Assembly (NCBI GenBank): GCA_049275655.1
Contig: JBASUY010000057.1
Span: 5,303 to 69,302 of the forward strand
Direction of reading: 5' to 3'
Length of the DNA: 64,000 nt
From: Candidatus Omnitrophota bacterium
GTDB lineage: Bacteria > Omnitrophota > Gorgyraeia > Gygaellales > Profunditerraquicolaceae
The translations under genes and the position numbers were made by a program. Below the pieces are notes generated by a model. It was given only the letters and a program-made list of their open reading frames with translations, ran no database searches and was not told where the DNA came from. Each line of letters starts with the position of its first letter. The first letter of the stretch is position 1. This document shows, piece after piece, positions 759 through 63,700 of the stretch.

Positions 759-1295
759 TTAGATAAACGGCCTGAGGCGTACTGATGCCCGCACGTCCCC
801 GACAGTATAGAAAGCGTTTGGGTCAAACTCTTTTATTGCGCATAAGGCCTTCTCTAATAATTTACGCCTCACTATAATAAAGATTATTTTTACCGGGCCA
901 AACGCTCCTTGCGCATCTATTGTTGTCAAGCCATATCCGTTATCGCGAAAATGCCTTAATAATTTAGAAGGGTCTTTATCTGTAATAAACTGAACGGATA
1001 TATTGCCTATGGCTATCTTTTTTTCTATGGTTATGCCTACAAAGTTCCCTAAACTAAACCCGGAGGCAAAGGCAATATAATTAACCGGGTTATTTAGGTT
1101 TTGCATTATTTGGGTAATCCCTACAAGCCAAATCAACATCTCAAAGAACCCTACTAAAGCAGCTAAAAACCTTACTCCCCGGGTAACAAAGATAATCCTT
1201 ATCGCTGACATACTCACATCCGCTGCCCGAAGAATAAAAATCAAAAAAGGAATAGCTATTTGAAGATAGATACTCTGCGGTATATATAATTGCAT
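759..1295 (-). CDS. UPF0316/DUF2179-domain membrane protein
   Basis: The 178 aa product has N-terminal TM helices and a C-terminal segment (GYGLTTIDAQGAFG...IKEFDPNAFYTVGDVRASV) matching the DUF2179 pattern (G.T...G.G.......I..iDP.AF.tv.dv). Confidence 0.4.
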   Translation of the reverse strand: MQLYIPQSIYLQIAIPFLIFILRAADVSMSAIRIIFVTRGVRFLAALVGFFEMLIWLVGITQIMQNLNNPVNYIAFASGFSLGNFVGITIEKKIAIGNISVQFITDKDPSKLLRHFRDNGYGLTTIDAQGAFGPVKIIFIIVRRKLLEKALCAIKEFDPNAFYTVGDVRASVRLRPFI

Positions 1296-1341
1296 AAGGC
1301 CTTCTTTATTCTTAAACCCTTACTTAAATGAATAACTTCAA

Positions 1342-2070
1342 TTAAGTAGGGCTATTTGCCCCTATCAAGATTTTGATCTTTTCTATTAATCCGGCTGCAT
1401 CCTCTGATTTATCATAATACCCGTCGGCACCGGGCAATAACTGCTTCTGGTCATCTTGGCTAAATACGCTGGAGATAATTATTTTTACCCCCGGAAACTC
1501 TCTTTTTATCTGTTCGTAAGTCTCAAGCCCGCTCTTCTGCGGCATGGCAAGGTCAAGAATTACTAAGGCGACCTCTTTGCTTCTCCTTAATATATCCAAC
1601 CCTAAGCTTCCATTATAGGCCTCAATTATGCGGTAACCGTTCTCCTGTAAATAGTGGCGGTAAATCTTTCTAATTCTCGGCTCATCGTCAATTACAAGTA
1701 TGCTTAACTGCCGGGTGAGACTCTGCTTAAGCCTTTTGATTTTCTCCAATAATAAATCAAGCCCTTGCGACTTATCATAATAATCTTCAGCCCCTTTAAT
1801 CATCTTCTTCTGCTCATCAATAGGATATACGCTGGCAACAATAACTTTAACCTTTTTATGAAAGTTCTGCGCTACTTCAAAAAAAATACTCCCATAGACC
1901 TGCGGCATATTGATATCCAAAAGCATTATATCGATCGGCTCTTTATTAAGTATATTGGAAGCTTCTATGGCATCGGGAGCTTCTATAACATCAAATCCTT
2001 CGTTTTTGAGCATAGCACTATACATCTTTCTTACTCTTTCTTCATCCTCAACAATAAGGATTCTTGTCAT
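1342..2070 (-). CDS. Response regulator with two tandem receiver (REC) domains and no output domain
   Basis: There are two CheY-like receiver domains. The first is ILIVEDEERVRKMY...MLLDINMP. The second is ILVIDDEPRIRKIY...LVILDLAMPQKSG with the phospho-acceptor Asp context. The protein is 242 aa. Confidence 0.7.
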   Translation of the reverse strand: MTRILIVEDEERVRKMYSAMLKNEGFDVIEAPDAIEASNILNKEPIDIMLLDINMPQVYGSIFFEVAQNFHKKVKVIVASVYPIDEQKKMIKGAEDYYDKSQGLDLLLEKIKRLKQSLTRQLSILVIDDEPRIRKIYRHYLQENGYRIIEAYNGSLGLDILRRSKEVALVILDLAMPQKSGLETYEQIKREFPGVKIIISSVFSQDDQKQLLPGADGYYDKSEDAAGLIEKIKILIGANSPT

Positions 2071-2275
2071 CTTTTCTCCTTAATTTAACGGGTTAGCCGC
2101 AGAATCAACTTCTACCTACGCCTACCTTTAAAATATTTTTTAAGGTACCCGTTTGTTTTTTAAGCTATAAAAAAATATAACACAAGCCCAATTAAAAAAA
2201 TGTTAAAAATAAATTAAAAAAATTAATAATTTTTTAGAAAGCTAAAACAGGCATTAAGTAAACAAAAAGCCCTTT

Positions 2276-3304
2276 TTAAGAAATGGGAAGAAAGAGGGTA
2301 AAGTTTGTCCCCTCCTCAGAAGAGCTGGCAACCGAAATCTCTCCCCTATGCAATTGGGCTATTGATTGAGCAATGCTTAAACCCAACCCACTACTCGGAG
2401 AAGTATCTTTAATAATTGTATCAATGCGGAAAAACTTATCAAAGAGCTTCGGTAAATTCTCTTCCTTAATCCCAATCCCCGTATCAATTATAGAAACAGA
2501 GGCTTTTTGCCCTTCATACATTAATTGTATCGTTATGCTCCCGCCGGCAAAGGTAAACTTAATCGCATTATCTATTAAGTTAAACAATAGCCGCCTTAGA
2601 TGCAGTTCATCGGCATTCACCATACGGGATTCTTGCGGAACGGCTAATTTTACCGTTATATTCTTTTTGGATGCTAAGACCTTTGCCTGCTCATAGATAA
2701 CACGGATAAACTCTGTTAAATCAACCGGCTCAAATTTTAAAACATCGGGCTGGTAGTTCATTTTAGTTAAAAGAAGCAAGTCCTCAATAATTTTAAGCAT
2801 CCTCTTAGTCTCTTCTAAACTTACGCTAATAACCCTTTTATACTCTTCTTTATCGCGCTCTTTTTTTAAAGCAAACTCTGACTCCCCCCTAATGATAGCT
2901 ATCGGGGTTTTAAGCTCATGGGCGATATACGAACTAGAATCAGTTATATACTCAAAGGATTCGCTTAAGCGAAAAATCATATCATTAAAAGCCTCAATCA
3001 AACGCCCCAACTCCTCATCCACATTTTCAGTTTTTAACCTTAGGCTTAAATCTTCATGGGTTATATTCTTTACCGTATCAGTCATTATTTTAATCGGTTT
3101 TAATATCCTTGAAATTATTAGATGCCCGATAAAATAACCAAGTAGCAAGGTTAGAGGGATAGGCAATAACATAAAGAGGAGTTTGTTGCTTTGTAAAATC
3201 CCTGCGGGCAAAAGAAAAAATACCCCGATATATATAGATAATACAACGCCTAAGATGAATACATATAATAGGCAAACTTTAAATTTTATTGTTTTAGTGC
3301 GCAT
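2276..3304 (-). CDS. Sensor histidine kinase (TM-HAMP-HisKA-HATPase)
   Basis: It has two N-terminal TM helices and an H-box (HELKTPIAIIRGESEF). It has an N box (LFNLIDNAIKFT), a G1 box (IDTGIGI) and a G2 box (GLGLSIAQSIA). Confidence 0.85.
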   Translation of the reverse strand: MRTKTIKFKVCLLYVFILGVVLSIYIGVFFLLPAGILQSNKLLFMLLPIPLTLLLGYFIGHLIISRILKPIKIMTDTVKNITHEDLSLRLKTENVDEELGRLIEAFNDMIFRLSESFEYITDSSSYIAHELKTPIAIIRGESEFALKKERDKEEYKRVISVSLEETKRMLKIIEDLLLLTKMNYQPDVLKFEPVDLTEFIRVIYEQAKVLASKKNITVKLAVPQESRMVNADELHLRRLLFNLIDNAIKFTFAGGSITIQLMYEGQKASVSIIDTGIGIKEENLPKLFDKFFRIDTIIKDTSPSSGLGLSIAQSIAQLHRGEISVASSSEEGTNFTLFLPIS

Positions 3305-3306
3305 GA

Positions 3307-3975
3307 TTACTCCCTTAAAAGATAGCCCTTGCCGTGGATGGTATGGATTAACTTTTTTTTGTGTCCCTTATCAATCTTTTTACGTAAAAAATTCATATAG
3401 ACATCAATGACATTAGTAAAACTATCAAAATCTTCGTGCCATACATGCTCGGATATCATCGTCCTCGTGACGACGGAAGAAGCGTTAACCATAAGGTATT
3501 CTAAAAGCGCAAACTCCTTGCTGGTTAATTTAATTTCTTTTCCTGCCCTGGCAACCCTATGTTTAAGCTTATCCATCTCTAAATCTCCAACTCTAATAAT
3601 GCCGGTTTTATCTTTATTCTCACGGCGCAATAGCGCGCTAATTCTGGCCAACAACTCTTCAAAGGCAAAGGGCTTTGCTAAATAATCGTCGGCGCCCGAA
3701 TTTAACCCTAAAACCTTATCCCGCACCCTATCTTTAGAGGTAAGCATTAAAATAGGTACATTTATTCCTTTATTTCTAAGCTCACGGCAAACAGAAATGC
3801 CGTCTTTAAGCGGAAGGATAACATCAAGTATGATAAGGTCATACGTGTTTATCTCGGCCTGAAATAAAGCCTCTTGTCCATCGCCGGCTATATCAACGAC
3901 ATAATCCTCTTCTTTTAAACCGCGAGCGATAAAACTTGCTATCTTAATCTCATCTTCAACCAAAAGAATGCGCAT
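3307..3975 (-). CDS. OmpR/PhoB-family response regulator
   Basis: It has a REC domain (MRILLVEDEIKIA...LDVILPLKDG) and a C-terminal winged-helix trans_reg_C domain (LTSKEFALLEYLMVNASSVVTRTMISEHVW). It abuts the kinase gene with a 2-nt gap. Confidence 0.85.
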   Translation of the reverse strand: MRILLVEDEIKIASFIARGLKEEDYVVDIAGDGQEALFQAEINTYDLIILDVILPLKDGISVCRELRNKGINVPILMLTSKDRVRDKVLGLNSGADDYLAKPFAFEELLARISALLRRENKDKTGIIRVGDLEMDKLKHRVARAGKEIKLTSKEFALLEYLMVNASSVVTRTMISEHVWHEDFDSFTNVIDVYMNFLRKKIDKGHKKKLIHTIHGKGYLLRE

Positions 3976-3999
3976 TTTTACTTTTTTCTTTTTGACACC

Positions 4000-5448
4000 T
4001 TACGCTAAAGCCCTTTGAAAAACAGCAAGGTCATCTTTATTTGCAAGTACCAACAAGACATCCCCGCCTTCTATAACCGTAGGCCCGGCAGGGATAATAA
4101 ACTTATTGTTTCTTGAGATAAGCATAATAAGGCATTTCTCAGGCACCTTTAAATCACGGATCATCTTGCCTACAGAACTTGAATTATACGGGACTATTAT
4201 ATCGGTTAACTCTGCGTCAATATTCTTTGTCTTTTCAAATTCAATAGGGTAGCGCGCTTTATCAATCCACGGAGCAGATACCTTTAGCGCCTTAGAGATA
4301 ACCGGTATTGATGTCCCCTGAATAAGAACTGAGGCAATAACAATAAAAAAGACGATATTAAAAATAATCCCTGCCTGCGTAATCCCGGCCATAAAAGGAA
4401 AGGTCGCTAAAATAATAGGAACCGAACCTCTAAGCCCTACCCAAGCAACCATAATTTTTTTACGCATCTTCATTTTAAACGGCAAGAGGCAAAGCAATAC
4501 GCTCACGGGCCGGGCAACTATCATAAGGAGAAATGTCAATAACAACCCCGGCTTTACCAACGGCAAAATTTGCGAAGGAAAGACAAGTAACCCTAAGGTT
4601 ACAAACATCGTAATCTGCATCAGCCAGGCTAACCCATCATGAAACTTTAAAATCATCCTTTTATTCGGAAACTCTGCTTTCCCAAGCATTAAGCCGGCGA
4701 CATAGACAGCTAATATCCCATTGCCCTTTAAAGATACGGCAACTACATAAGTTAAGAGTACTAAAGATATCATTACCGCCGGATAAAGCCCTTCATAATA
4801 CAACTTAAGCCGGCTGATAGAAAATACAATAATTTTGGCCATTAAATACCCTATGGCCGCACCCATCCCCATATCTATAAAAAACCTAGGGACCAAAGAA
4901 AAAATATTCGCATCCTTTGCAATTATGATACTAAGAAAACCGGCGGTTAAAAATACTGCCATCGGGTCATTGCTACCGGATTCAAATTCAAGCAACGGTT
5001 TTAAGGGCTGCTTTAAGCTTATGCGCTTGGAGCGCAATATACTAAATACCGCTGCAGCATCAGTAGAAGAGACTATAGAACCTAAGAGTAATCCTTCTAA
5101 GAGAGAAAACTTAAAGATATAAACGGCAAATATGCCTGTTATAATCGCAGTCAACAATACTCCTGCGGTAGAGAGGATTACCCCTTGCCAAAGAACGGGT
5201 TTAGTCTCTCTCCAATTAGTGTCAAGCCCGCCGGAGAAGATAATAAAGATAAGCGCAACAATCCCTATGGATTTTGCCAGATGCGCGTTATCAAAGTAAA
5301 TCTTTCCTAACCCCTCAGAGCCAACGAGCATCCCGATAACTAAAAAGAGAAGAAGAGCAGGTATGGCAAACCTATCCGAGAGCTTGCTTGAAATAGCGCT
5401 TACGAATACTAATACTGCGACCCAGAGTAATATCGTCTCTAATGCCAT
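4000..5448 (-). CDS. K+/H+ (cation:proton) antiporter, CPA1/NhaP2-type with C-terminal TrkA-C (RCK_C) domain
   Basis: The 482 aa product has about 12 TM helices typical of Na_H_exchanger proteins. Its C-terminal soluble domain (DAELTDIIVPYNSSSVGKMIRDLKVPEKCLIMLISRNNKFIIPAGPTVIEGGDVLLVL) matches TrkA-C. Confidence 0.7.
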   Translation of the reverse strand: MALETILLWVAVLVFVSAISSKLSDRFAIPALLLFLVIGMLVGSEGLGKIYFDNAHLAKSIGIVALIFIIFSGGLDTNWRETKPVLWQGVILSTAGVLLTAIITGIFAVYIFKFSLLEGLLLGSIVSSTDAAAVFSILRSKRISLKQPLKPLLEFESGSNDPMAVFLTAGFLSIIIAKDANIFSLVPRFFIDMGMGAAIGYLMAKIIVFSISRLKLYYEGLYPAVMISLVLLTYVVAVSLKGNGILAVYVAGLMLGKAEFPNKRMILKFHDGLAWLMQITMFVTLGLLVFPSQILPLVKPGLLLTFLLMIVARPVSVLLCLLPFKMKMRKKIMVAWVGLRGSVPIILATFPFMAGITQAGIIFNIVFFIVIASVLIQGTSIPVISKALKVSAPWIDKARYPIEFEKTKNIDAELTDIIVPYNSSSVGKMIRDLKVPEKCLIMLISRNNKFIIPAGPTVIEGGDVLLVLANKDDLAVFQRALA

Positions 5449-5563: not shown

Positions 5564-6175
5564 TTATTCTTTTTCTACACCCGCGCTATAGGATTGTATT
5601 TGCGGCATATTTTTCATAGCCTCTTCAATAGCACTGCGGTATTCAGCCGGCAACTTAGAGAGAGCCGTAGATATATTCTGAGGATCGCTCTGGATAGATT
5701 CAATCAACTGCTGATATTCAGGAGGAAGATTGGCTATTATATAAGCTGTATCTAAATTTACCGGCGATGTGTGTTTAATACCTTCATTTAACTCTCCTAT
5801 AGGCATATCAGTCGGAATATTAAAAATGTCTTTATCCATTATTTCTTCTGCATAATTATCGTTTTCGAATGATTCCTTATCGGACTGAATAGGATAATGC
5901 TCTGCAAGAGCAGAAAAATCAATAGGAGAATACGCCGGCTTAAAACCAAGCCCTTTCTCTGGAGAGAGCAAATTTGCCGCTCCTTGAGATACGCTATCAA
6001 TCTCATCATTATAGTAGGTTAAATCCACTCCTTGAAAGCTTATCTTTATATACTCGTCTGTCCTCTCTATAATATCGCCCTCTATCCTTTGGCCGGTTTT
6101 AAGTAAAATTGTCTCCGCAAAAAGATAAGGCACAAAAAATAAAACTACTAACATAAGGATAAATACTTTTTTCAT
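5564..6175 (-). CDS. Secreted hypothetical protein (signal peptide)
   Basis: It has an N-terminal signal peptide (MKKVFILMLVVLFFVPYLFA) and no recognisable family. Confidence 0.5.
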   Translation of the reverse strand: MKKVFILMLVVLFFVPYLFAETILLKTGQRIEGDIIERTDEYIKISFQGVDLTYYNDEIDSVSQGAANLLSPEKGLGFKPAYSPIDFSALAEHYPIQSDKESFENDNYAEEIMDKDIFNIPTDMPIGELNEGIKHTSPVNLDTAYIIANLPPEYQQLIESIQSDPQNISTALSKLPAEYRSAIEEAMKNMPQIQSYSAGVEKE

Positions 6176-6189
6176 ACGCTCCTACCTTT

Positions 6190-7485
6190 TTATTTTATAA
6201 ATCTTGCTAACCTCTTAATTGTTCTATCAATACCTAAATAATATATCACCTCAAATAACCCCGGGCCTATGGTCTTTCCGGTAAGTGCAACCCTCACCGG
6301 GTGTATCAAAACCCTTGCTTCAATCCCTAACTCGCTTACTAGGTTACGGAAGCTCTCCTCAATACTGACAATATCAAATTTCTTTAATGCTCTAAGCCGT
6401 TCGGAGAAGAGCAAAAATTCATGCGAAAAATCCTTGCTTAAATACTTCTCCTTAGCCTTAGGCTCAACGCTGACTTCTTCTAAAAAGAAGAAATCCGCCC
6501 AATCACAAAAATCATTAACCAATCCAAGCCTCGGCTTAAATAATTCTATCAGAGAGAGAAGATAATTTCTATCAAAATCAGCTTCTTTAATGTATCCCTT
6601 TTCTTTTAATAGAGGTATTAGCTGTTCAAGGAGCTTAGCGCTATCCTCATTTTTAATATACTGATTATTGACCCACCCTAATTTTTTTAGGTCAAATGTA
6701 GCTGCAGTCTTATTTACACAAGATAAATCAAATAACTTTACAGCCTCATCTATATCAATAATCTCCCGGTTCTCGCCCGGAGCCCAACTTAAAAGCAAAA
6801 GGTAATTAACCAAGGCTTTTGGCAGATACCCCATTGCCCGGTAATCACTTATGGCGGTTGCCCCTGTCCTCTTAGAGAGCCTGCCTCCTTCCATGCCTAG
6901 AATCAGCGGAAGATGGGCAAAGAGAGGGGTCTTAAAACCTAATGCTTCATACAAGAGTAATTGTTTAGGCGTATTAGATATATGGTCATCTCCGCGGATT
7001 ACATGGGTTATATCGGTTGTCGCATCGTCTATAACACAGGCAAAGTTATAGGTAGGGGTTCCGTCTGACTTTATCAAGACCTGGTCCTTTATCACCTCTG
7101 AGTCAAATTCAATCTCTCCGCGGATTAAATCACAAACCTTTATCTTTTGCGGGGTTACTTTAAATATTATCGCCTCCCCCTCTTTCTCGGGGGATTTTTC
7201 TGTATATGCCTTACCTGACTTAAGAAGTCTTTGGGCAAAATCATTGTAGATGCTCGGGCGCTGGCTCTGATAATATATCTCATCCCAGCTAAACCCAAGC
7301 CATTGCAAGCTATTTAATATCTCATCTACAAACTCCTGTTTAGAGCGTAATTTATCCGTATCTTCTATCCTTAAGATAAACTTGCCTGACTTTGCCTTTG
7401 CATAAAGCCAATTAAAAAGCGCAGTCCGTCCGCCGCCTATATGTAGATTACCCGTCGGGCTTGGAGCAAACCTTACCCTAACCAT
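6190..7485 (-). CDS. gltX: Glutamate--tRNA ligase (short form, 431 aa)
   Basis: It has class I aaRS motifs. The HIGH region reads RFAPSPTGNLHIGGGRTALFNWL and is followed by ILRIEDTD. The KMSKS-like motif is RLSKR. The C-terminal anticodon-binding helix pattern is RVALTGKTIGPGLFEVIYYLG. Confidence 0.85.
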   Translation of the reverse strand: MVRVRFAPSPTGNLHIGGGRTALFNWLYAKAKSGKFILRIEDTDKLRSKQEFVDEILNSLQWLGFSWDEIYYQSQRPSIYNDFAQRLLKSGKAYTEKSPEKEGEAIIFKVTPQKIKVCDLIRGEIEFDSEVIKDQVLIKSDGTPTYNFACVIDDATTDITHVIRGDDHISNTPKQLLLYEALGFKTPLFAHLPLILGMEGGRLSKRTGATAISDYRAMGYLPKALVNYLLLLSWAPGENREIIDIDEAVKLFDLSCVNKTAATFDLKKLGWVNNQYIKNEDSAKLLEQLIPLLKEKGYIKEADFDRNYLLSLIELFKPRLGLVNDFCDWADFFFLEEVSVEPKAKEKYLSKDFSHEFLLFSERLRALKKFDIVSIEESFRNLVSELGIEARVLIHPVRVALTGKTIGPGLFEVIYYLGIDRTIKRLARFIK

Positions 7486-8009
7486 TATAAAGCCCTCCCT
7501 GCCTGTAAAGCTTTCTCATTAATCTTTATAATGCCTTTTCTATCTGCGGGAGCCATCTTACCTATCGCCCTTAATACGCTCTTCTCTTGAAGAGTTTTAC
7601 TAAACTTTAAGTAACTGCCTAATGCCACCATGTTCGCTACTTTTACATTGCCTAATTTTACCGCAATATCAGTAAAAGGGAATTGCTCTATTTGTAATTT
7701 ATTTTTTACCGGGCCAACCAAAGAACTATTAACAATTATCCTTCCGTTTTTATTCACTCTCAATCTAAACTTCTCGTAAGAAAGATTATTCATAATAATC
7801 AAGGCATCTGCCTTATCAACATAAGGAGAACCAATCTCATTATCCGAGATAACTAACATACAATGTGCAGTGCCTCCTCTGACCTCAGCACCATAAGCAG
7901 GAAGCCAAGTAACAAATTTACCCTCATCCATAGCCGCCTCTGCTATAACCTTACCTAAAAGCATAATCCCCTGCCCGCCGCTTCCGGCGATAATTATCTT
8001 CTCTGTCAT
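7485..8009 (-). CDS. porG: 2-oxoacid (pyruvate/2-ketoisovalerate):ferredoxin oxidoreductase gamma subunit
   Basis: The product contains IIIAGSGGQGIMLLGKVIAEAA...YGAEVRGG, the POR gamma signature. It is the last gene of a four-gene cluster. Confidence 0.8.
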   Translation of the reverse strand: MTEKIIIAGSGGQGIMLLGKVIAEAAMDEGKFVTWLPAYGAEVRGGTAHCMLVISDNEIGSPYVDKADALIIMNNLSYEKFRLRVNKNGRIIVNSSLVGPVKNKLQIEQFPFTDIAVKLGNVKVANMVALGSYLKFSKTLQEKSVLRAIGKMAPADRKGIIKINEKALQAGRAL

Positions 8010-8734
8010 TTTATCCTGCCTAAAGGAAACTCTTTTACTACCTCTTCTTTAATCCTCTTTAATGCCTCAACCGCAGATAATCTCCAATAAGTCGGGCAAG
8101 GAGAGAGTATCTCAACCATAGAAAAGCCAACCCCTTCTATTTGGTTTAAAAAAGCCTGTTTTACCGCCCTTTTAGTTTTTATAACCTCCTGCGCAGAATG
8201 CAATGAAACTCTCTCAATATATTTTACCCCCGGTAACAAGGCAAGCATCTCTGATATCCTTAAAGGAAATCCGTGCTTCTTTGCCTGCCTACCCAATACT
8301 GTAGTCGCTGTCTTTTGGTTAATCAGGGTAGTCGGAGCCATCTGCCCTCCGGTCATCCCATAAACCCCATTATTAATAAAAATTACAGTAAGATTTTCTC
8401 CGCGGTTAGCCGCGTGTATTGTCTCATTAGCTCCTATGGCAGCCAAGTCTCCGTCTCCTTGATAAGTAAAGACTATATTTTTAGGCCTTACCCTTTTTAT
8501 TGCTGTGGCAACTGCTAATGCTCTCCCATGCGCAGACTCTGAGCAATCAAAATCCCAATAATCATAGGCAATTACTGCGCATCCTACCGGAGCAACCGCA
8601 ATTACCCTCTCTCTTATCTTTAACTCATCTATAATCTCAGCGATAATCCTATGCGCTATGCCATGCCCGCACCCAGGGCAATAGTGAGTAGGAATGTTGC
8701 GTAAAGATTTAGGATGGGCGTATATCTTATCCAT
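8006..8734 (-). CDS. porB: 2-oxoacid:ferredoxin oxidoreductase beta subunit (TPP-binding)
   Basis: It has a CPGCGHG motif and a GDG...N TPP-binding motif (YQGDGDLAAIGANE...NNGVYGMTGGQ). Confidence 0.85.
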   Translation of the reverse strand: MDKIYAHPKSLRNIPTHYCPGCGHGIAHRIIAEIIDELKIRERVIAVAPVGCAVIAYDYWDFDCSESAHGRALAVATAIKRVRPKNIVFTYQGDGDLAAIGANETIHAANRGENLTVIFINNGVYGMTGGQMAPTTLINQKTATTVLGRQAKKHGFPLRISEMLALLPGVKYIERVSLHSAQEVIKTKRAVKQAFLNQIEGVGFSMVEILSPCPTYWRLSAVEALKRIKEEVVKEFPLGRIK

Positions 8735-9809
8735 ATAATTTAACTACCCTTTTGATAATCTCTTCTTCTGACAAAACCCCTCCTCCTGCCCTGCCTAAAA
8801 AATCAACCTCTGCCCTTCCTTTAAGAGCAAGCCGAACATCTTCAACCATCTGGCCATAAGACATCTCAAGGACTAAATAACGCTTCTTACTCTTTACTCT
8901 TGTATTTACCCTATTAAATGCCTTAATCGGAAAAGGCCAGAGAGTTATCGGGCGTATCAATCCTGCCCTTATCCCCATTTTTCTTAAAGATTTAAGCGCA
9001 GACTTAGCAATCCTTGCCATTGTCCCATAAGCAACCAAGATAATCTTAGCATCAGACACACTTACTTCTTCATAGCGCTCTTCATCTTTGACAATCTGCG
9101 CATATTTTTTTTGCAGCTTAAGATTAAACTTCTCTAAATCTCCTGCGCGCATATAAAAAGACTTTATAATATTCTGCCTTCTCTCCTTACAACCTGTAAG
9201 CGCCCACGGCTTATCTATCGGTTTTTGCCTGCTCCTATTAGAACCTAAAGGGATAATAATAGGCTCCATCATCTGGCCTAACATCCCATCCCCTAAGACA
9301 ATCACCGGGTTTCGGTATCTATCCGCAAGGCAAAAAGCAGTCTTCATAATATCAAATGACTCCTGCACAGAAGATGGCGCTAAGACTATGCAACGGTATT
9401 CTCCATTTCCTCCACCGCGCGTTGCCTGAAAATAATCGGATTGCGCAGGCCAGATATTGCCTAAACCCGGGCCTGCGCGCATAATATTTACAATTACCGC
9501 AGGAAGCTCTGAACCGGCAAGGTATGATATTCCCTCTTGTTTTAGGCTTATACCCGGGCTTGAAGAAGAGGTCATCGCAGAAGCCCCTGCAGCAGAAGCA
9601 CCATAAACCATATTTATCGCGGCAATCTCAGACTCTGCCTGTATAAAGACCCCATCATCAGGCATATGTTCGGACATATAACCAATGAGCTCATTTTGCG
9701 GCGTTATAGGATACCCGGCATAAAACTTACAGCCAGCGTCTATTGCGCCTTCAGCTATGGCCTCATTCCCTGAAATCAATACTTTTTTTTGCGACTCTTT
9801 TCTTGCCAT
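8727..9809 (-). CDS. porA: 2-oxoacid:ferredoxin oxidoreductase alpha subunit
   Basis: The product begins MARKESQKKVLISGNEAIAEGAIDAGC, a typical POR alpha N-terminus. The ORF track extends it to 9863. The conserved N-terminus suggests the true start is the internal Met at about 9809, overlapping the delta gene. Confidence 0.8.
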   Translation of the reverse strand: MARKESQKKVLISGNEAIAEGAIDAGCKFYAGYPITPQNELIGYMSEHMPDDGVFIQAESEIAAINMVYGASAAGASAMTSSSSPGISLKQEGISYLAGSELPAVIVNIMRAGPGLGNIWPAQSDYFQATRGGGNGEYRCIVLAPSSVQESFDIMKTAFCLADRYRNPVIVLGDGMLGQMMEPIIIPLGSNRSRQKPIDKPWALTGCKERRQNIIKSFYMRAGDLEKFNLKLQKKYAQIVKDEERYEEVSVSDAKIILVAYGTMARIAKSALKSLRKMGIRAGLIRPITLWPFPIKAFNRVNTRVKSKKRYLVLEMSYGQMVEDVRLALKGRAEVDFLGRAGGGVLSEEEIIKRVVKLYG

Positions 9810-39926: not shown

Positions 39927-39930
39927 CTTA

Positions 39931-40155
39931 TTAATCTAACGGATCATATAGCCCTCTGCCTGAAAATGGATGGCACATAGATATCCTCTTAACTCCTTTT
40001 AAAGAGCCTTTTAATACCCCATATCTTTGAATTGCCTCTTTTGTATATTCAGAGCAGCTTGGAATAAAGCGGCAGGCAGGAGGCAAAACAAACCTTATAT
40101 ACTTTTGATAGTAACCTATAATCCTAATGGCGAACTTTTGCAAGATTAGAGACAA
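39931..40155 (-). CDS. yidD: Membrane protein insertion efficiency factor YidD
   Basis: It reads IRIIGYYQKYI...PACRFIPSCSEYTKEAIQRYG, the YidD/hemolysin family signature. Confidence 0.85.
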   Translation of the reverse strand: MSLILQKFAIRIIGYYQKYIRFVLPPACRFIPSCSEYTKEAIQRYGVLKGSLKGVKRISMCHPFSGRGLYDPLD

Positions 40156-40283
40156 AGCCTCTTCCTACCTTTTTTCCTGCGCCGGGCTAAGAGTTTGCGG
40201 CCCTTGCGGGTTGACATCTTCTTCCGAAAGCCCTGCCTTCTTTTACCAACAATATTGGTCGGAGTTTTCAAATTCTTTTTCAT
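40146..40283 (-). CDS. rpmH: 50S ribosomal protein L34
   Basis: I translated this by hand; it is absent from the track because it is under 60 aa. The 45 aa product is MKKNLKTPTNIVGKRRQGFRKKMSTRKGRKLLARRRKKGRKRLCL. It matches the L34 consensus (MKRTFQPS..KR...HGFR.RM.T..GR.VL..RR.KGRK.L). Confidence 0.85.
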   Translation of the reverse strand: MKKNLKTPTNIVGKRRQGFRKKMSTRKGRKLLARRRKKGRKRLCL

Positions 40284-40732
40284 CTTCTTATCCCTCTTAA
40301 TTAAGATTGATTATGATGGTTGCTAATTATAGCATAAAAGCACACTCCGTCAATGGGTAATTTATATATTAATATAAAAGAGCCTTAATCTCCACCGAAT
40401 ATCCACAGCTCCGTCGATATTATCACCCTGCAGCCTCTCTTTGGCGCTTTTTAATCCTTATGATTATATTATAAAAGCGCCAGAGAATAAACCACTAAAG
40501 CTTATATCTAATTTGTATTGACGCAAGAGAAGAACGATGTATAATAACTGACGTTTAACTTTTTTGCTTGCAACTACTTTAATTTCTGTTATAATTATTG
40601 CACTCTACCTAAGGTATTGGAATGCCGACTATATTTGTCGCCGGTTTTATGATTTTAGGGGCTTGAGATCCTATAATAATAAGAATCATTTTTCCACAGA
40701 TTTATACAAGATGTGGATAAACTGTTAATAGA
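40284..40732. promoter_or_regulatory. Putative chromosomal replication origin (oriC) and dnaA promoter region
   Basis: It is a 449-nt non-coding rpmH-dnaA spacer. There is a perfect DnaA box TGTGGATAA at 40712..40720. Near-consensus boxes are aATATCCACA at 40398..40407 and TTTTCCACA at 40691..40699. An AT-rich run (atttatatattaatataaaag) lies at about 40360. Sigma70-like promoters are TTGACG-16-TATAAT (40518..40545) and TTGCAA-16-TATAAT (40568..40595). Gene-strand polarity flips here. Confidence 0.6.
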
Positions 40733-42073
40733 ATGAATTTGCAGGACTTAACGTTAATTTGGAACCGCGCTTGCCAACAGCTTCAGCAAATAATAGAGCA
40801 TACTGCTTTTGAGACTTGGATATTGCCGTTGCAGGTTAAATCAAAAACCGCAAACTCCTTAACCTTAGAGGCGCCGGATAATTTCTTTAAAGAATGGGTA
40901 CAAAAAAATTATGGGCCGATTATTGAAAACGCCATCAAAAAGTCCTATCCTGATATCATTAATATTGAAATAGGGGTAATACCGCAAACGTCCCCTAATT
41001 TAACCCCACCCCTTTCAACTATAGCCATAAAAGAAAAGGGGGAACAATATGGCATAGGGCTAAATAATAGATATACATTTGATAATTTTGTTGTCGGATC
41101 ATCTAATCGCCACGCACACGCCTATTCTGTCGCCGTAGCAGAGGCTCCGGCAAAAACCTATAATCCGCTTTTTATATACGGGGGTGTGGGCTTAGGGAAA
41201 ACACACCTTATACAAGCTATATGCCACAAAATTAAAGAGGGCGCAAAGAATAACTTAAAGATAGCTTACCTACCATCTGAACAATTTACCAACGAACTAA
41301 TTAATGCAATACAGCGCCACGCCACTGCTAATTTTAGACAAAAATATAGAAACGTTGATATCCTTGTTATTGATGACGTACATTTTTTCGGCGGCAAAGA
41401 CTCTACACAGGAGGAGTTTTTCCATACCTTTAATACACTGTATGATGCACACAAACAAATCATCCTCTCATCAGACCGGCCACCTAAAGAGATCGCCGAT
41501 TTACAAGAACGGTTAATATCCCGTTTTGGCTGGGGTTTAACAACCGATATACAACCGCCAGACCTAGAGACAAGGGTAGCCATTTTAAAAAAGAAGGTTG
41601 AACGGGAACCTGTTGTGGTCCCGGATGACGTTATATTTTTTATAGCGCAACTGATCAAGACTAATATCCGCGAATTAGAAGGAGCCTTGGTCCGAACAAT
41701 GGCTTATTCTTTAATGGAAGAGGAGCCCATTACCGTGAGCCTAACAAAAGAGGTTTTAAAAGACCTTATAAGGGAACCAAAAAAGCTAATTACCGTAGAT
41801 TTTATAATGCGTTGTACCGCAGAAGAGTTTGGTATCCTTATGGGGGATATGAAAACTCGCAGGAGAAATAAGACCGTAGTCTTACCGCGGCAGGTAGCTA
41901 TGTATTTAAGTAGAGAGTTGACGGATTTATCTTTGCCGGAAATAGGAGGGTTTTTTGGAGGGAAGGACCATACTACGGTATTGTATGCATACAATAAAAT
42001 TAAAGAGAGTATTAATAAAGATTGTCTTTTAAGTGACAAGATAACCCGAATTATAAACGTTCTTAAACAATAA
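40733..42073 (+). CDS. dnaA: Chromosomal replication initiator protein DnaA
   Basis: It has AAA+ Walker A ([10 protein letters not shown]) and Walker B (LVIDDVHF) motifs. It has sensor motifs and a C-terminal DnaA-box binding domain ([16 protein letters not shown]). Confidence 0.95.
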
Positions 42074-42207: not shown

Positions 42208-43299
42208 ATGAAACTTAGTATTGATAAGGATGTCTTGTTGTCAGGAATACAGACCGTTCAAAATGTTATCATTGCTAAAACTAGCCTACCAATACTTTCC
42301 AACATTTTATTAGAAGCACAAAATGAGCAATTACGACTAACAGCCACAGATTTAGATATAGGTATAACCTGTGTAGTTCCTGTTGAGGTACGCGAAACAG
42401 GCGCAATTACTGTCCCGGCTAAAAGATTTAGCGATATTATTAAGGAGTTACCCGCAGGTAAAATTCAGTTAATGGCCAAAAAAAACAACCAGATGAATAT
42501 TGAAGCTCCTCCTTGTCAATTTAGAGTAATGGGGTTAGCCCGCGAAGAGTTTCCTAGGTTGCCTGAGTTTAAGGATAAGGAGGTAATTAATGTAGGGCAA
42601 AAAGATTTAAAAGAGATGTTGAGGGTTACTTCTTTTGCGGCATCTACGGACGAGCACCGTTATATTTTAAACGGGGTGCTTTTTAGGTTCCACAAAAATA
42701 ATCTTACTATGGTAGCTACGGATGGCAAAAGATTGGCGGTAGTGGAAAAAAAACTTAATACGCCTTCTAATATTGAAGCCAGTATTATTGTTCCACAAAA
42801 AGCAGTGCAAGAGCTAGGCCGCAACCTTAAAGATGAGGGGAGTGTCTCTTTGGTTTTAGGCCTCAATCAAGTGTTGTTTGAGTTGGGTTTCACATCTATT
42901 ATATCGCGCCTTATCGAGGGAGAATTTCCGGATTATAAACAAGTTATTCCTTCGCCTACAGATAACAAGCTACGTCTTAACAGGGGGGAGTTTTTGTTAG
43001 CGGTTAAAAGAGCTGCGCTTTTGTCTACTCCTGATTATCAGGCGGTAAAACTAGAGGTTTTTAAAAACAAATTAGTCCTCTCTAAATCTACTCCGGATGT
43101 CGGAGAGTCTCGGGAGGAGATTTCTATAGCCTATGTAGGGAAAGAATTGGTGGTAGGTTTTAATCCTTTGTATTTAGTAGATGTTTTAAAAAACTTAGAT
43201 GTTGAGTTTATAGATTTAGAGCTTACTGACACAGAAAAACCCGGGGTTATACGCAACGATGGTTATACTTATATAGTTTTACCTATGCGGTTAGGTTAG
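42208..43299 (+). CDS. dnaN: DNA polymerase III beta sliding clamp
   Basis: The 363 aa product has three beta-clamp domains and ends PMRL. Confidence 0.9.
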   Translation: MKLSIDKDVLLSGIQTVQNVIIAKTSLPILSNILLEAQNEQLRLTATDLDIGITCVVPVEVRETGAITVPAKRFSDIIKELPAGKIQLMAKKNNQMNIEAPPCQFRVMGLAREEFPRLPEFKDKEVINVGQKDLKEMLRVTSFAASTDEHRYILNGVLFRFHKNNLTMVATDGKRLAVVEKKLNTPSNIEASIIVPQKAVQELGRNLKDEGSVSLVLGLNQVLFELGFTSIISRLIEGEFPDYKQVIPSPTDNKLRLNRGEFLLAVKRAALLSTPDYQAVKLEVFKNKLVLSKSTPDVGESREEISIAYVGKELVVGFNPLYLVDVLKNLDVEFIDLELTDTEKPGVIRNDGYTYIVLPMRLG

Positions 43300-43302
43300 T
43301 TT

Positions 43303-46049
<2,747 letters not shown>

Positions 46050-46062
46050 CAAAGGAGGAGAT

Positions 46063-46872
46063 ATGGCGGATTATGCGAAAAAAGCGATTTATCCGGCTTT
46101 GATTTTTAAGGAAGCTTGGGGTATTGTTCTTAAAAGTTTCAAAAAATTGAGTGCCATTTTCCTAATTTTTTATATACCATTTTTGATCCTTGCTTTGTTA
46201 TCGTTGGCTATAGCAGGGGACCAGTCTAAAATTTTAACTCTAATCTCCATGATATTAAGCTTGTTGGTTTCGGTTCCGTTAATATTTGCTACTTGTAAAG
46301 TAGCGCAGGGTGAGGGGGTAAGTATTGTAGAGGGTATTTTATCGGGGATGAAAAAATACTTACTGCGCTATATAGCACTCAATTTATTAATGGCTCTATT
46401 TTTAATCGGTATAATCTTTGCCGGATTCTCGGTCGTAGTGGTTTTGTATTCTATGGTTGGCAGAGGGAGTATTTTATTGGCATTTACTACATTGATTATC
46501 CCGGCTATTATAGTAACTTCCATCTTCGTTTATTTTATGATCCGCTGGGCATTAGCAGGGGTAGTTTGTATAGCAGAGGGTTTAGGGCCTATTAAGTCAT
46601 TAAAGCGTAGCACCGTCCTTATAAAGAATTATGTTACGCCGGTTGTCGGAGAGTATACCTTAATTATGGTTACCTTATTGCTTGCATCTATCCCTTATAC
46701 TGCGTGGAATTATATTTTTAATAGGCAATATTATTCTGCAGAAGTAAGCATAGTTTCCGCTGCCGTCAATAATATTATTATTCATTCTATTGTAACACCA
46801 TTTATTATTGCAGTAATGGTTGTTATGTATAAAAAATTAAAAGAGGCGATAGAGACAAATGTATGCCCGTAA
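46063..46872 (+). CDS. Polytopic integral membrane protein of unknown function inserted between gyrB and gyrA
   Basis: The 269 aa product has about 6 predicted TM helices. A strong SD (aaaggagg) lies 6 nt upstream. Its 3' end overlaps the gyrA start by 14 nt. I did not recognise any family. Confidence 0.6.
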
Positions 46873-49288
46873 TGAAAAAGTAGTCCCTGTTTATATTGAA
46901 GAGGAGGTTAAAGACGCTTATTTAAATTATGCGATGAGCGTCATTGTCGGGCGTGCCCTGCCTGATATACGCGACGGTTTAAAGCCGGTGCATAGGAGGA
47001 TACTCTATGCTATGCAGGAGTTAAGCTTAGGGTATGCTAAGCCGTATAAGAAATGCGCGCGTATCGTTGGGGAGGTCTTGGGGAAATACCATCCGCATGG
47101 GGATGTGGCGGTTTACGATGCCTTAGTAAGGTTGGCGCAAGATTTTTCTTTACGCTATCCTTTGGTAGACGGACAAGGTAACTTTGGCTCTGTAGATGGA
47201 GATGCTGCTGCAGCCATGCGTTATACTGAGGCGCGCCTTGCTTCCATATCCGATGTTATCCTTGGGGATATAGATAAGGATACGGTAAACTTCGGGCCTA
47301 ATTTTGATGCTTCTTTAAAAGAGCCCTTGCTTTTGCCTGCGGCCCTGCCTAATTTGCTTGTAAATGGCTCAAGCGGTATCGCTGTAGGTATGGCCACAAA
47401 TATCCCGCCGCATAATTTAAATGAAGTAGCAGATGCGATTATTTATCTTTTAGATAATCCTTCAGCAGAGATTAAGGACTTGATGCGTTATATAAAAGGG
47501 CCGGATTTTCCTACAGGAGGGGTTATCTGCGGTAAGGGGGGGATTAAAGAGGCTTATACAACCGGGCGGGGCAAACTTACTGTGCGCGCTCGGGCGACTG
47601 TTGAGCATCAAAAAAACGGAAAAGATTTGATTATCATAACAGAGATTCCGTATCAAGTGCAAAAATCATCATTAATTGAGGCTATTGCCGGGCTTGTAGA
47701 CGAGAAAAAGATAGAAGGCATCTCTGATATACGCGATGAGTCTGACAAGGATGGCATGCGCATAGTAGTTGAGCTTAAAAGGGATACTGAGCCGCAGATT
47801 ATCCTCAACCAGCTCTTTAAACATACACAACTGGAGACCACCTTTGGTATTATTACCCTTGCACTTGTAGAGAATAGGCCTAAGGTTTTAAATCTGCGTC
47901 AAGTATTGGATTGCTATATAGAGCATCGCAAGGTTATTATCCGCCGCAGGACACAATTTGAGCTGGATAAGGCCTTGAAGAGGGCGCATATTTTAGAAGG
48001 ACTAAAGATAGCCCTTAAGTTTATTGACCGCATTATTAAGGTAATTAAATCCTCTAAGAGCGTAGATGTAGCACGGGTTAGTTTAATGAAAGAGTTCGGC
48101 CTTTCAGAGGTACAAGCGCAGGCAATACTGGAGATGCAGCTACAGCGCTTAACCGCTCTTGAGCAGGATAAGATTGAGGCTGAATATGCCGAATTACTAA
48201 AGAAGATAGAATTATGCAGGGCCATATTAGCCTCTGAGAAAAAAATAGAGGGCATTATTAAAAATGAGTTGAAAGGCCTTAAAGAGAGATACGGGGATGA
48301 GCGTAGGACTGATATAGTCGGCGAAGTGGAAGAGCTTGAGATAGAGGATTTGATAGCAGAAGAAGACGTTGTAGTTACTATTAGCCATAGCGGTTATATA
48401 AAGAGGCTTCCGGTAAGTTCTTACCGTAGACAAAAACGGGGGGGCAGAGGGGTAACCGGCGCAGAGGTGAAAGATGAGGATTTTATAGAGCACCTCTTTG
48501 TCGCCTCTACCAAGGATTACCTCTTGATTTTTACAGATAAGGGGCAAGTCCATTGGCTTAAGGTTTATGAGATTCCGCAGGCAAGCCGCACCTCTAAGGG
48601 TAAAGCTATTATTAATTTAGTGCAGATGGAGCAGGATTCTAAGATAAGCTCTACCGTTCCTGTTCAGGGGTTTTCTGCTGATCAATATTTAGTAATGGTT
48701 ACCAAATTAGGTTTAATTAAAAAGACTAAACTTGATGCTTATGGCAATCCGCGTAAAGGTGGGATTATAGGCATTACTCTAGACAAAGGAGATGAGTTAA
48801 TAAGCGTAGAGATGACGGATGGCAAGCAGGAGCTTTTAATAGGTACTCGCCAAGGAAAGGCTATACGTTTTTCTGAGGAAAAGGTTAGAGATATGGGGCG
48901 CGCTGCCCGGGGAGTAAGGGCAATATCTTTAGCAAAAAAAGATGAAGTAATAGATTTAGTTATCCCGCAAAAAGATGCGGCGATACTTACGGTTACCTCT
49001 TTGGGGTTTGCAAAGCGCACCACGGTAGATGAGTATAGGTTGACTTCTCGCGGAGGTAAGGGGATAATTAATATTAAGGTTACGGATAAAAACGGCGAAG
49101 CGGTAAACCTTAAGACCGTTAGCGATGAAGACGAATTGATGGTCATTACTCAAAATGGCATATTTTTACGTTGCGCGGTTAAAGACATTAGGGAGACCGG
49201 ACGCTCTGCCCAAGGAGTGAGATTAATCAAATTACAGGATAAAGACCGAGTCTCTTGTGTTGCTCCGGTTATAGCAGAAGAGGAATAG
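46859..49288 (+). CDS. gyrA: DNA gyrase subunit A
   Basis: It has the active-site region AMRYTEARL with the catalytic Tyr. It has a QRDR-like segment and C-terminal beta-pinwheel repeats. It is 809 aa. Confidence 0.95.
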
Positions 49289-49294
49289 GCTTTA

Positions 49295-49369
49295 GACCCT
49301 GTCGTCTAGCCTGGTCTAGGACAAGAGCTTTTCAAGCTCTCGACACGGGTTCAAATCCCGTCAGGGTCA
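49295..49369 (+). tRNA. tRNA-Glu (anticodon TTC)
   Basis: The sequence GACCCTGTCGTCTAGCCTGGTCTAGGACAAGAGCTTTTCAAGCTCTCGACACGGGTTCAAATCCCGTCAGGGTCA folds as a cloverleaf with the anticodon loop ttTTCaa. Confidence 0.8.
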
Positions 49370-49533
49370 CTTTATTTTTATGTGTGGAATAGTTGAGCAT
49401 GCAAGCGTAAGTCCAGCGCAGAATACTTTTTTCTGATAGGGTTAAAACGTTTAGGCACCGCGGATATAACAAAAAGAGGAAAATACGGGAATATAAACGG
49501 ATTAGCGAAACCCTTAAAGAGAGAGGTATTGAT

Positions 49534-50718
49534 ATGAAGAACTCAAAGGCCATGGATTATAAAGCCCGCCAGGTAGGCAAAAAAAATAATTGTATCCATA
49601 GGAATACAACACAGGCGCAAAAAAATGACTTTGCTCATTTTATGCTAAAAGAGATTAATGAGCAGCCAAAAACCTTAGAAAATTTTTTAAGTAGCAGGAT
49701 AAATAAAAAAACCCACAAGATAGAGTTTCTACAAGGAGAAATCTCAAAAGAGGCTTTAGGTAGCCTAAAAGATATTTTTATTATAGCCTGTGGGACGTCT
49801 TATCATGCCGGATTAGTAGGTAAGTATATTATAGAATCTTTATGCCGGATACCTGTACGCGTAGAAGTCTCAAGCGAATTTCATTATCGCGACCCATTGA
49901 TTGGCCCTAATACTTTGATTATCGCAATAAGCCAATCAGGGGAAACCGCGGATACTTTATCTGGGGTAGGCTTGGCACGGGCAAGAGGCGCAAGGGTTTT
50001 TACTATTTGTAATGTATTAGATTCTACATTAACCCGTAAGTCTGATGGCACTATTCATACGAATACCGGACTTGAGGTGGGAATAGCCGCTACAAAGACT
50101 TATACTACCCAGCTTGCTGCGTTGTATCTTTTTGCTTTGCATTTAGCGAAGGTAAAAAATATTTTGCCACCCGGTAAAATTCATAAACTGATAAAAGAGT
50201 TACGCAAGACACCGAAATATATAGAGGTTATCTTAAAAAACCAAAATCAGATAGCATCTATTGCCCGGAAGCACTCTAATTGTGAGGCTTTTCTTTATCT
50301 GGGGCGTAATATTAATTATCCCTCTGCTTTGGAGGGGGCATTAAAATTGAAAGAGGTCTCTTATATACCAGCGGAAGGGTATGCAGGCGGAGAGTTAAAG
50401 CACGGACCCATCGCCTTAATTGATGAGCGACGCATGGCAGTTTGTATTGCCCCGCAATCAAGAGTGTATGATAAGATGGTCTTAAGCATGCGGGAGATAC
50501 GCTTACGCAAGGGCAAGATTATTGCTATTGTCAGTAAGAACGATAGCGCAGTAAAAGCGTTAACCCACGGGACAATCTTTATACCGAAAATCAATGAATT
50601 ATTTTCTCCCCTTTTAGTGGCAATACCCTTACAACTATTAGCTTATTATATTGCAGCCAAAAAAGGTTATAATGTTGACCAACCACGCAACCTTACCAAA
50701 GCAGTTACTGTTGAATGA
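49534..50718 (+). CDS. GlmS-like sugar-phosphate isomerase (tandem SIS domains only; GlmD/AgaS-type), no glutaminase domain
   Basis: It is homologous to the C-terminal isomerase half of GlmS. It has EINEQPKTL, a first SIS domain (GTSYHAG...SQSGETADTL) and a second SIS domain. Its C-terminus (DQPRNLTKAVTVE) is identical in style to GlmS. The N-terminal Cys glutaminase domain is absent. An alternative start is at 49642. Confidence 0.75.
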   Translation: MKNSKAMDYKARQVGKKNNCIHRNTTQAQKNDFAHFMLKEINEQPKTLENFLSSRINKKTHKIEFLQGEISKEALGSLKDIFIIACGTSYHAGLVGKYIIESLCRIPVRVEVSSEFHYRDPLIGPNTLIIAISQSGETADTLSGVGLARARGARVFTICNVLDSTLTRKSDGTIHTNTGLEVGIAATKTYTTQLAALYLFALHLAKVKNILPPGKIHKLIKELRKTPKYIEVILKNQNQIASIARKHSNCEAFLYLGRNINYPSALEGALKLKEVSYIPAEGYAGGELKHGPIALIDERRMAVCIAPQSRVYDKMVLSMREIRLRKGKIIAIVSKNDSAVKALTHGTIFIPKINELFSPLLVAIPLQLLAYYIAAKKGYNVDQPRNLTKAVTVE

Positions 50719-51412: not shown

Positions 51413-51563
51413 TTGACAAAGGATTTGGGCGTGGTATACTTACCTTAAATTAGAAGGACCTTTAAGGCCTGCTCAGAGAGGCAGGCAAGGCGGAGAAAGT
51501 AATGGAGTTTACAACCTGTATATTAGATACCCTAGGCATAAAAGCCTAGGGTATTTTTTTATT
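51413..51563 (+). promoter_or_regulatory. pyr operon promoter + PyrR-binding loop + intrinsic terminator (transcription attenuator)
   Basis: The promoter is TTGACA-17-TATACT (51413..51441). The PyrR binding-loop motif is cctgCTCAGAGAGGCAGGCAAGG (51468..51490), against the consensus UCCAGAGAGGCU.GCAAGG. The terminator hairpin is accctaggc-ataaaa-gcctagggt (51529..51552) followed by T9. Confidence 0.65.
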
Positions 51564-63027: not shown

Positions 63028-63700
63028 GATAGTTTTGGCACTTGATGTGGATAATTTTCTTCAAGCGCGCCAGCTTGTGGATAAACTCTATCCTACTATT
63101 AAAACATTTAAGGTAGGAAGCCAGTTATTTACCTCATGCGGGCATAAGATTGTAGAGTTTATCAATAAAAAAGGCGCTAAGGTATTTTTAGACTTAAAAT
63201 TTTTTGATATACCCAATACCGTTGCCAAGGCAGTTCGCGCAGCAACCCGCCTTAAGGTTAAGATGATGACCATGCATATCCTTGGCGATGAGGAGATGCT
63301 TAAGGCAGCGGTCTTTGCCGCGAAGGATGAGGCAAGGAGACTTCGCATAAAAAGGCCGCTTTTAATCGGGGTTACTGTATTGACTAGCAAGGAAGCGAAG
63401 ATAAATGATGTTTTAATTTTAGCAAAGATGGGGATAGAGTCTGGTTTGGACGGAGTGGTCTGCTCTGCTAAGGAGGCAGGGGAAGTGCGTAAGAATATAA
63501 AAGGGGAGTTTGTTATCGTAACTCCGGGGCTAAGGGCAAGGGGTAGTTTTAAGAATGACCAAAAGAGGACTGCGACTATCCTTGAGGCAATCTCTGCAGG
63601 GAGTAATTTTTTAGTAGTCGGCAGGCCGCTCTTAGAAGCAACTAACCCTAAGGCAACCGCAAAAGCAATGTTAGGAGAGATAAATGCCGGAAGAGATTAA
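63017..63700 (+). CDS. pyrF: Orotidine 5'-phosphate decarboxylase
   Basis: It reads IVLALDVDNF with the DxKxxDIP motif (LDLKFFDIPNTV). Confidence 0.9.
   Translation: MKPEIVLALDVDNFLQARQLVDKLYPTIKTFKVGSQLFTSCGHKIVEFINKKGAKVFLDLKFFDIPNTVAKAVRAATRLKVKMMTMHILGDEEMLKAAVFAAKDEARRLRIKRPLLIGVTVLTSKEAKINDVLILAKMGIESGLDGVVCSAKEAGEVRKNIKGEFVIVTPGLRARGSFKNDQKRTATILEAISAGSNFLVVGRPLLEATNPKATAKAMLGEINAGRD

Follow-up and report, generated by a model that had tools for sequence, protein, structure and literature searches.

We analysed a 64,000-nucleotide (nt) stretch of Candidatus Omnitrophota DNA (the window; all coordinates are positions in it), in which an open reading frame (ORF) of 269 amino acids (aa), here called X, lies between the DNA gyrase genes gyrB and gyrA. 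X adds a new and divergent member to a protein family that is known but has yet to be characterised. The gene and the signals at its junctions are:

46051–46058, + strand: Shine-Dalgarno (SD) sequence AAAGGAGG of X, read directly from the sequence; the ATG follows 4 nt further on
46063–46872, + strand: X, ATG start, TAA stop, 269 aa; predicted N-in/C-in six-helix inner-membrane protein of a gyrase-linked Omnitrophota branch of DUF7847/GPDPase_memb, with a CysZ/CTL-like fold
46840–46846, + strand: AAAGAGG, probable SD of gyrA, within X codons K260-E261-A262; its last G stands 12 nt before the gyrA ATG
46859–46872, + strand: 14-nt overlap of the 3' end of X with the 5' end of gyrA, whose ATG is at 46859

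The gyrB stop codon TAA occupies positions 46047–46049, and X starts 13 nt after gyrB. The 14-nt overlap with gyrA, reported in the original prediction, was borne out at 46859–46872. The gyrA start is backed by the N-terminus MY[AT]RN[ED], which is kept in all relatives, even in those where X stops before gyrA. The GC content of X is 0.358 vs. a window average of 0.404.

Conservation and synteny of X

A protein identical to X was found on 14 contigs labelled Candidatus Omnitrophota. Homologues of 259–288 aa were recovered down to 31% identity by a word-indexed search and down to 23% by a profile search covering 1.84 billion representatives. The profile search yielded 47 clusters at E ≤ 1e-30, and its scores dropped sharply from about 92 bits (P0067) to about 73 bits (P0073).

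Down to 23% identity, the relatives of X stand beside gyrB and/or gyrA in 32 of 32 places, which represent about 24 distinct X sequences. The named relatives all belong to Candidatus Omnitrophota. Both flanks are visible in 27 of these places. X lies between gyrB and gyrA in every one of the 27, and this position holds throughout the lineage. Individual cases are:

P0058 (23% identical): X between gyrB and gyrA
P0067: X between gyrB and gyrA
P0028: X between gyrB and gyrA, with inteins in both gyrase genes
P0032, P0060, P0046 and P0043: X beside gyrB and/or gyrA

The order dnaA-dnaN-dciA-gyrB-X-gyrA was found by tblastn in all 15 GTDB species representatives and in the contigs of P0005, P0010 and P0013. 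Across the same loci, synteny extends further, as dnaA-dnaN-dciA-gyrB-X-gyrA-glmS-rsmI-PRTase-ATCase/OTCase-family gene. The position of X is therefore no stronger evidence of a link to gyrase than the position of glmS.

Several of these loci have peculiarities of their own. The intein-bearing locus (L027) has intein domains (Intein_splicing, LAGLIDADG_3) in both gyrB (1228–4983, 1251 aa) and gyrA (5834–9652, 1272 aa), with X between them, and L022 has an insertion of about 1.2 kb in gyrB at about 2635–3842, at the equivalent of residues 440–462. Four GTDB representative metagenome-assembled genomes (MAGs; L009, L011, L012, and L013) are titled 'uncultured Planctomycetales bacterium'. Proteins of their dnaA–gyrA region are up to 97% identical to those of Omnitrophota-labelled MAGs, and the Planctomycetales label is probably wrong.

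The distance from the gyrB stop to the X start is 0–32 nt in the 27 loci, mostly 0–2 nt. Gaps of 0–2 nt leave no room for an SD, and the strong SD of X in the window is therefore a local feature. Hence, the claim that X has a strong SD of its own stands for this genome (AAAGGAGG) but not as a general trait; among relatives, the SD occurs only in some. Where the gap is 0–2 nt, X looks coupled to gyrB. From the X stop to the gyrA start, the distance is −14 nt in 19 of the 27 loci and −25 to +6 nt in the others. In one relative (L015, position 5812), gyrA starts with GTG instead of ATG, and the 14-nt overlap with X is kept. Codons K260-E261 read AAA GAG in 16 of the 18 loci that keep K-E, and GAG usage in neighbouring genes is 58%. 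All loci with the −14-nt overlap have GAGG at a constant 12 nt upstream of the gyrA ATG. This GAGG within the X codons looks like an embedded gyrA ribosome-binding site, although the loci are not independent of each other and the spacing is long.

Selection was assessed by a codon-level comparison in which the same genome pairs were used for all three genes. The ratio of nonsynonymous to synonymous substitution rates (dN/dS) was 0.15–0.28 for X, 0.016–0.032 for gyrA, and 0.026–0.050 for gyrB. X is therefore under purifying selection, far looser than that on gyrA and gyrB (about 8–10 times their dN/dS). By gyrase, the clade is not deep, with GyrA 82–97% and DnaA 64–96% identical; X is 23–52% identical where GyrA is 82–93% identical. 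These dN/dS values, together with the length and helix pattern kept in relatives, confirm that X is a real gene.

Family assignment

According to the original prediction, the protein had no recognisable family. The window protein indeed matches no Pfam family even at E ≤ 10 and no NCBIfam entry, and it falls below the DUF7847 (PF25231) gathering cut-off of 28.7 bits. At the profile level, the claim proved wrong. Two orthologues exceed the same cut-off, P0003 (60% identical, 34.0 bits) and P0007 (45% identical, 31.4 bits). DUF7847 is matched at E ≤ 0.01 by 28 of the 53 members of the subfamily (best E-value 2.7e-11), a few of which also match GPDPase_memb or DUF975. A profile-profile alignment (hhalign) between the 53 gyrase-linked sequences and 31 generic ones gave 99.9% probability and an E-value of 7e-37 over 255 aligned columns. 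A search with the profile of X reached 2478 representatives at E ≤ 1e-3; among them was P0073, annotated with both PF25231 and PF10110. The low-scoring tail of this search consisted of generic DUF7847, GPDPase_memb, DUF7544, and UPF0259 proteins. X shares with DUF7847 and with GPDPase_memb (PF10110), DUF7544, DUF975, and UPF0259/YciC full-length profile homology, equal length, the helix plan, and the core residues; the Pfam model fails on X itself because the protein is too divergent.

Residues common to the gyrase-linked and generic sets are E172, R182, S183, L186, G196, P246, and Y256, kept in 77–98% of 84 generic members and all present in X. The sequence of X also contains the family-wide signature E...(G)P..AL.RS..L with the C-terminal P...Y. 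Residues specific to the gyrase-linked branch are P11, Y103, V156-Y157-F158, C169, P193, and K258/K260/E261, and the C-terminal helix reads LYKKLKEA in X vs. YYDLRIRKEGFDL in generic members. By profile homology, X is thus placed as a divergent, lineage-specific branch of the widespread DUF7847/GPDPase_memb family.

Only the branch of X was found between gyrB and gyrA, whereas generic members occur in MoxR or other contexts. P0073 (L026, 5001–10209) belongs to a tandem of a DUF7847/GPDPase_memb gene and a DUF7847 gene, followed by DUF4129, DUF4350, and a MoxR AAA+ ATPase. The tandem DUF7847-DUF4129-DUF4350-MoxR may be a recurring context of the wider family. Another generic member, P0076 (L030), adjoins GAPDH. 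Homologues free of any gyrase linkage, which the original prediction had regarded as evidence against its view, thus exist outside the subfamily (L026, L030), whereas every orthologue examined is gyrase-linked. Homology to a well-known housekeeping family had been regarded in the same way, and DUF7847 is not a well-known characterised family: it has only the status of a DUF, and our literature search found no functional study of DUF7847, GPDPase_memb, DUF975, or UPF0259.

Topology and predicted structure

Hydropathy analysis of X revealed six hydrophobic segments, and the helices of the AlphaFold models concur, in agreement with the six membrane helices proposed originally. The N-terminus, loops 2 and 4, and the C-terminus together carry 18 Lys and Arg residues, vs. 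2–3 on loops 1, 3, and 5. This bias indicates an N-in/C-in topology. The AlphaFold model built from 13 sequences had a predicted local distance difference test score (pLDDT) of 80.9 and a predicted template modelling score (pTM) of 0.77; with 53 sequences, these values rose to 92.2 and 0.88. Both models have the same plan, a short amphipathic helix (residues 11–24) followed by three helical hairpins (26–49/55–81, 88–132/137–161, and 191–221/226–265), with short helices 165–172 and 176–188 between hairpins two and three. In the models, a conserved cytoplasmic 'head' is built from the short amphipathic helices. All conserved segments are located at or close to the cytoplasmic side of the membrane: the N-terminal helix, residues 156–198 (VYFxIRxxLxGxxCxxExxGPxxALKRSxxLxKxYVxPVVG), and the C-terminal LYxKLKEA.

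Three helical hairpins, a hydrophilic head, and a significant structural superposition identify the modelled fold of X as that of CysZ, CTL1, and Pns1. When the profile of X was compared with the sequences of the PDB, only chance matches (G protein-coupled receptors and the like) were obtained. CysZ (EI24/CysZ family; PDB 3tx3 and 6D9Z) is a sulfate permease supported by binding and flux data; its short helices and both termini make up an extramembranous hydrophilic head, where the conserved residues are found (PMC5967866). X resembles it in the three hairpins and in a hydrophilic head that holds both termini and the most conserved residues. CysZ is 9–13% identical to X, without sequence similarity, and the CysZ motifs ExVE and QYxDYPxDNHK (PMC5967866) are absent from X. 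CysZ has two full transmembrane (TM) helices and two hemi-penetrating hairpins in a dual-topology hexamer, whereas the six hydrophobic helices of X are long and its charge bias is strongly N-in/C-in. No EI24/CysZ Pfam match was found for X or its 53 relatives. Eukaryotic CTL1/SLC44A1 and yeast Pns1 are 7–10% identical to X; CTL proteins are larger, eukaryotic, and have an extracellular domain. With 269 aa, six helices, this low identity, and no Pfam match, X does not belong to the CTL/SLC44 family. What CTL proteins do is itself under dispute, and one suggestion is a role other than transport (PMC13160678). By analogy, the fold points to work at the membrane, probably small-molecule handling at the cytoplasmic face, and is silent on DNA.

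Origin-proximal neighbourhood and predicted operon

The other features of the neighbourhood of X are:

39927–40732, no strand assigned: probable oriC region upstream of dnaA, with a strand switch, GC skew, and DnaA-box-like sites
40733–42073, + strand: dnaA; its homologues in L001 and L005 have Bac_DnaA domains
42208–43299, + strand: dnaN (beta clamp)
43303–43590, + strand: dciA (helicase-loader antecedent); Pfam DciA, E-value 1.7e-6, 28.6 bits vs. a cut-off of 24
43587–46049, + strand: gyrB, 820 aa from ATG 43587, start MSKEKTKQ; 4-nt overlap with dciA
46859–49288, + strand: gyrA, 809 aa; relatives are 82–97% identical
49295–49370, + strand: tRNA-Glu (ttc), directly after gyrA; detected with ARAGORN
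51525–51556, + strand: first strong terminator-like hairpin downstream (13-bp stem and T run), after rsmI

ORFs of at least 150 aa all lie on the − strand up to 39926 and on the + strand from 40733 onward, and the GC skew changes sign at about 40 kb, where the cumulative skew has its minimum. DnaA-box-like sites occur at 40399, 40690, and 40712, and only the one at 40712 is a perfect box within the oriC region. With the origin just upstream of dnaA, X is a leading-strand gene at a distance of about 6 kb from the inferred oriC. Two further perfect DnaA boxes (TTATCCACA) lie 30 nt apart on the − strand, at 63046–63054 and 63076–63084, about 22 kb from the inferred origin.

In the ORF list, gyrB began with GTG at 43485 (854 aa) and overlapped dciA by 106 nt (43485–43590). 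The true start is likely ATG 43587, which forms an ATGA overlap with the dciA stop, because it agrees with the gene calls in relatives (807–820 aa, with HATPase_c, DNA_gyraseB, Toprim, and DNA_gyraseB_C domains). From dnaN on, all gaps through gyrA fall within −14 to +13 nt. The best promoter-like sites were found upstream of dnaA. Between 43600 and 49288, only weak terminator-like sites were detected, and none comparable to that at 51525 lies inside gyrB-X-gyrA. The gaps of 13 nt and −14 nt around X leave no room for promoter or terminator signals. We infer that gyrB, X, and gyrA are probably read from one mRNA.

The glmS-like gene downstream of gyrA (49534–50718, + strand) encodes only 394 aa with two SIS domains and lacks the N-terminal glutaminase domain (Pfam). 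In tblastn with a full 612-aa GlmS, only residues 223–612 matched, both in the window and in the closest relative L009 (8524–9693). Full glmS is retained in 17 other relatives. The tRNA-Glu gene at 49295–49370 occupies the place of the missing part. The short product may be an isomerase-only or GlmD-like deaminase form.

Other gyrB–gyrA arrangements

As a background sample, we used 80 metagenome gyrA loci selected by the GyrA N-terminus. They represent distant lineages only, with full-length GyrA 50–60% identical where measured, and no close outgroup lacking X was among them. At least 1.5 kb upstream of gyrA was available in 59 of the 80; gyrB lay upstream in 17 of these 59 and was directly adjacent in about 13 of the 17. 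None of the 17 contained a homologue of X. In an unrelated lineage (L038, 2111–3950; GyrA 56% identical), a 111-aa hypothetical protein, a thiamin pyrophosphokinase, and a 6-TM TauE/SafE exporter are encoded between gyrB and gyrA, and the exporter gene ends 18–26 nt before gyrA. In Caldalkalibacillus thermarum, gyrB and gyrA are separated by a 4.7-kb insert that includes transport genes (PMC7561548). Both inserts resemble X in their placement and differ in belonging to unrelated families, in not overlapping gyrA, and in showing no sign of clade-wide conservation. They demonstrate that unrelated genes do enter the gyrB–gyrA gap. No prior report of a clade-wide coupled gyrB-X-gyrA arrangement was found in the literature searched, and such an arrangement appears to be unreported.

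Possible role of X

On balance, and with modest confidence, we favour the reading that X is a membrane housekeeping protein whose gene was captured in the origin-proximal gyrase operon and is held there by translational coupling. The capture would have taken place in an ancestor of one Omnitrophota clade, into the operon dnaN-dciA-gyrB-gyrA. X would be translated from its own SD, as in this genome, or by re-initiation after gyrB, as in most relatives. Ribosomes ending X would then start gyrA at the overlapping or abutting ATG, aided by AAAGAGG in the last conserved codons of X. The job of X would be related to the membrane and would not form part of gyrase catalysis; by fold analogy, it may consist of handling a small solute or lipid head-group at the cytoplasmic face. 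Two things would keep X in place: the dependence of gyrA translation on it and the synteny of the whole neighbourhood. Generic family members occur in unrelated contexts. Given that synteny, the fixed position of X may reflect inheritance rather than function. In this reading, X would have no direct role in gyrase function. The stoichiometric gyrase partner of the original prediction had been deduced from position only and was not supported.

Several observations weigh against the capture of a housekeeping gene. No exception to the order gyrB-X-gyrA was seen in 32 places with about 24 distinct X sequences and three junction architectures. Both family-wide and subfamily-specific conservation concentrates on the cytoplasmic face (P11, Y103, V156-F158, C169, P193, and K258-E261), where a soluble partner would bind. 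The 'membrane housekeeping' role is drawn from fold analogy only, no family member being of known function, and a transport role is disputed even for CTL proteins (PMC13160678). Finally, the Omnitrophota genomes compared all carry X, and neither gain nor loss of the gene was observed.

A rather unlikely alternative is that X serves as a dedicated membrane tether for gyrase or the origin region. Either its cytoplasmic head would bind GyrA or GyrB, both made beside it on one mRNA, or its co-transcriptional, co-translational insertion (transertion, an established concept; PMC4464175; PMC9977878) would pull the origin-proximal locus and newly made gyrase to the membrane. The invariant gene order, tightly coupled on either side of X in all 27 loci that are visible in full, would suit such a tether, as would the distance of about 6 kb from the inferred oriC and the clustering of conserved positions on the cytoplasmic face. 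The C-terminus of X is also cytoplasmic, so that ribosomes ending X would be at the membrane when starting gyrA. However, the conserved cytoplasmic core is common to generic family members without a gyrase context, X diverges fast beside very conserved gyrase subunits, and the syntenic neighbourhood includes the unrelated glmS and rsmI. Moreover, we know of no gyrase partner that is a membrane protein. The known gyrase-binding regulators YacG, GyrI/SbmC, the MfpA/Qnr pentapeptide proteins, CcdB, and ParE, which have nothing in common with X beyond the notion of an accessory gyrase factor, are all soluble proteins, and none is a homologue of X (no Pfam match). A further proposal, also unlikely, sees the gyrase-linked DUF7847 branch as built specifically to anchor the replication-origin region and gyrase: co-translational insertion of X, translated from the middle of the gyrB-gyrA message about 6 kb from oriC, and possibly direct binding by its head, would keep origin-proximal DNA and newly made GyrB and GyrA at the inner membrane.

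It is still less probable that X is a transporter or channel that feeds back on gyrase, by moving an ion or osmolyte that sets supercoiling or by exporting a gyrase poison in an immunity-like manner. The fold matches that of CysZ, for which permease activity is documented (PMC5967866), and the junctions suggest co-expression of X with gyrase. Nevertheless, the CysZ motifs are missing, no sequence-level relation to CysZ/EI24 exists, no toxin or biosynthetic genes lie nearby, and the gyrase genes are a housekeeping pair next to dnaA. Searches for mobile, defence, or immunity homology of X were also empty (PADLOC, 0 hits; PHROGs, none at or below E 0.06; plasmid tblastn, no match), which tells against an immunity-like exporter as well. 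On the same empty searches, we set aside the initial suggestion that X could be a cargo, immunity, or defence element. The view that X is an accidental open frame, or an insertion without function that is mis-assembled or in decay, for which one could cite the missing direct Pfam or NCBIfam match and the low GC content, is extremely improbable and was excluded by the conservation data, namely the dN/dS of 0.15–0.28, the length and helix pattern that persist down to 23% identity, and the identical protein on 14 contigs, and by the AlphaFold pLDDT of 92.

Significance

The DUF7847/GPDPase_memb family is here documented as sharing the CysZ/CTL fold. If the position of X is only inherited, as in the favoured reading of a captured membrane gene, then a housekeeping operon has captured an unrelated membrane gene that it cannot release, since the translation of gyrA runs through X. 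If the linkage is functional, bacterial gyrase would have its first membrane-bound partner in X, which would offer an entry to the organisation of the origin region in the ultra-small, uncultured Omnitrophota, as well as a first functional handle on the DUF7847 family with its thousands of members. Should the anchor reading be true, a topoisomerase would be localised in a manner that has not been described before.
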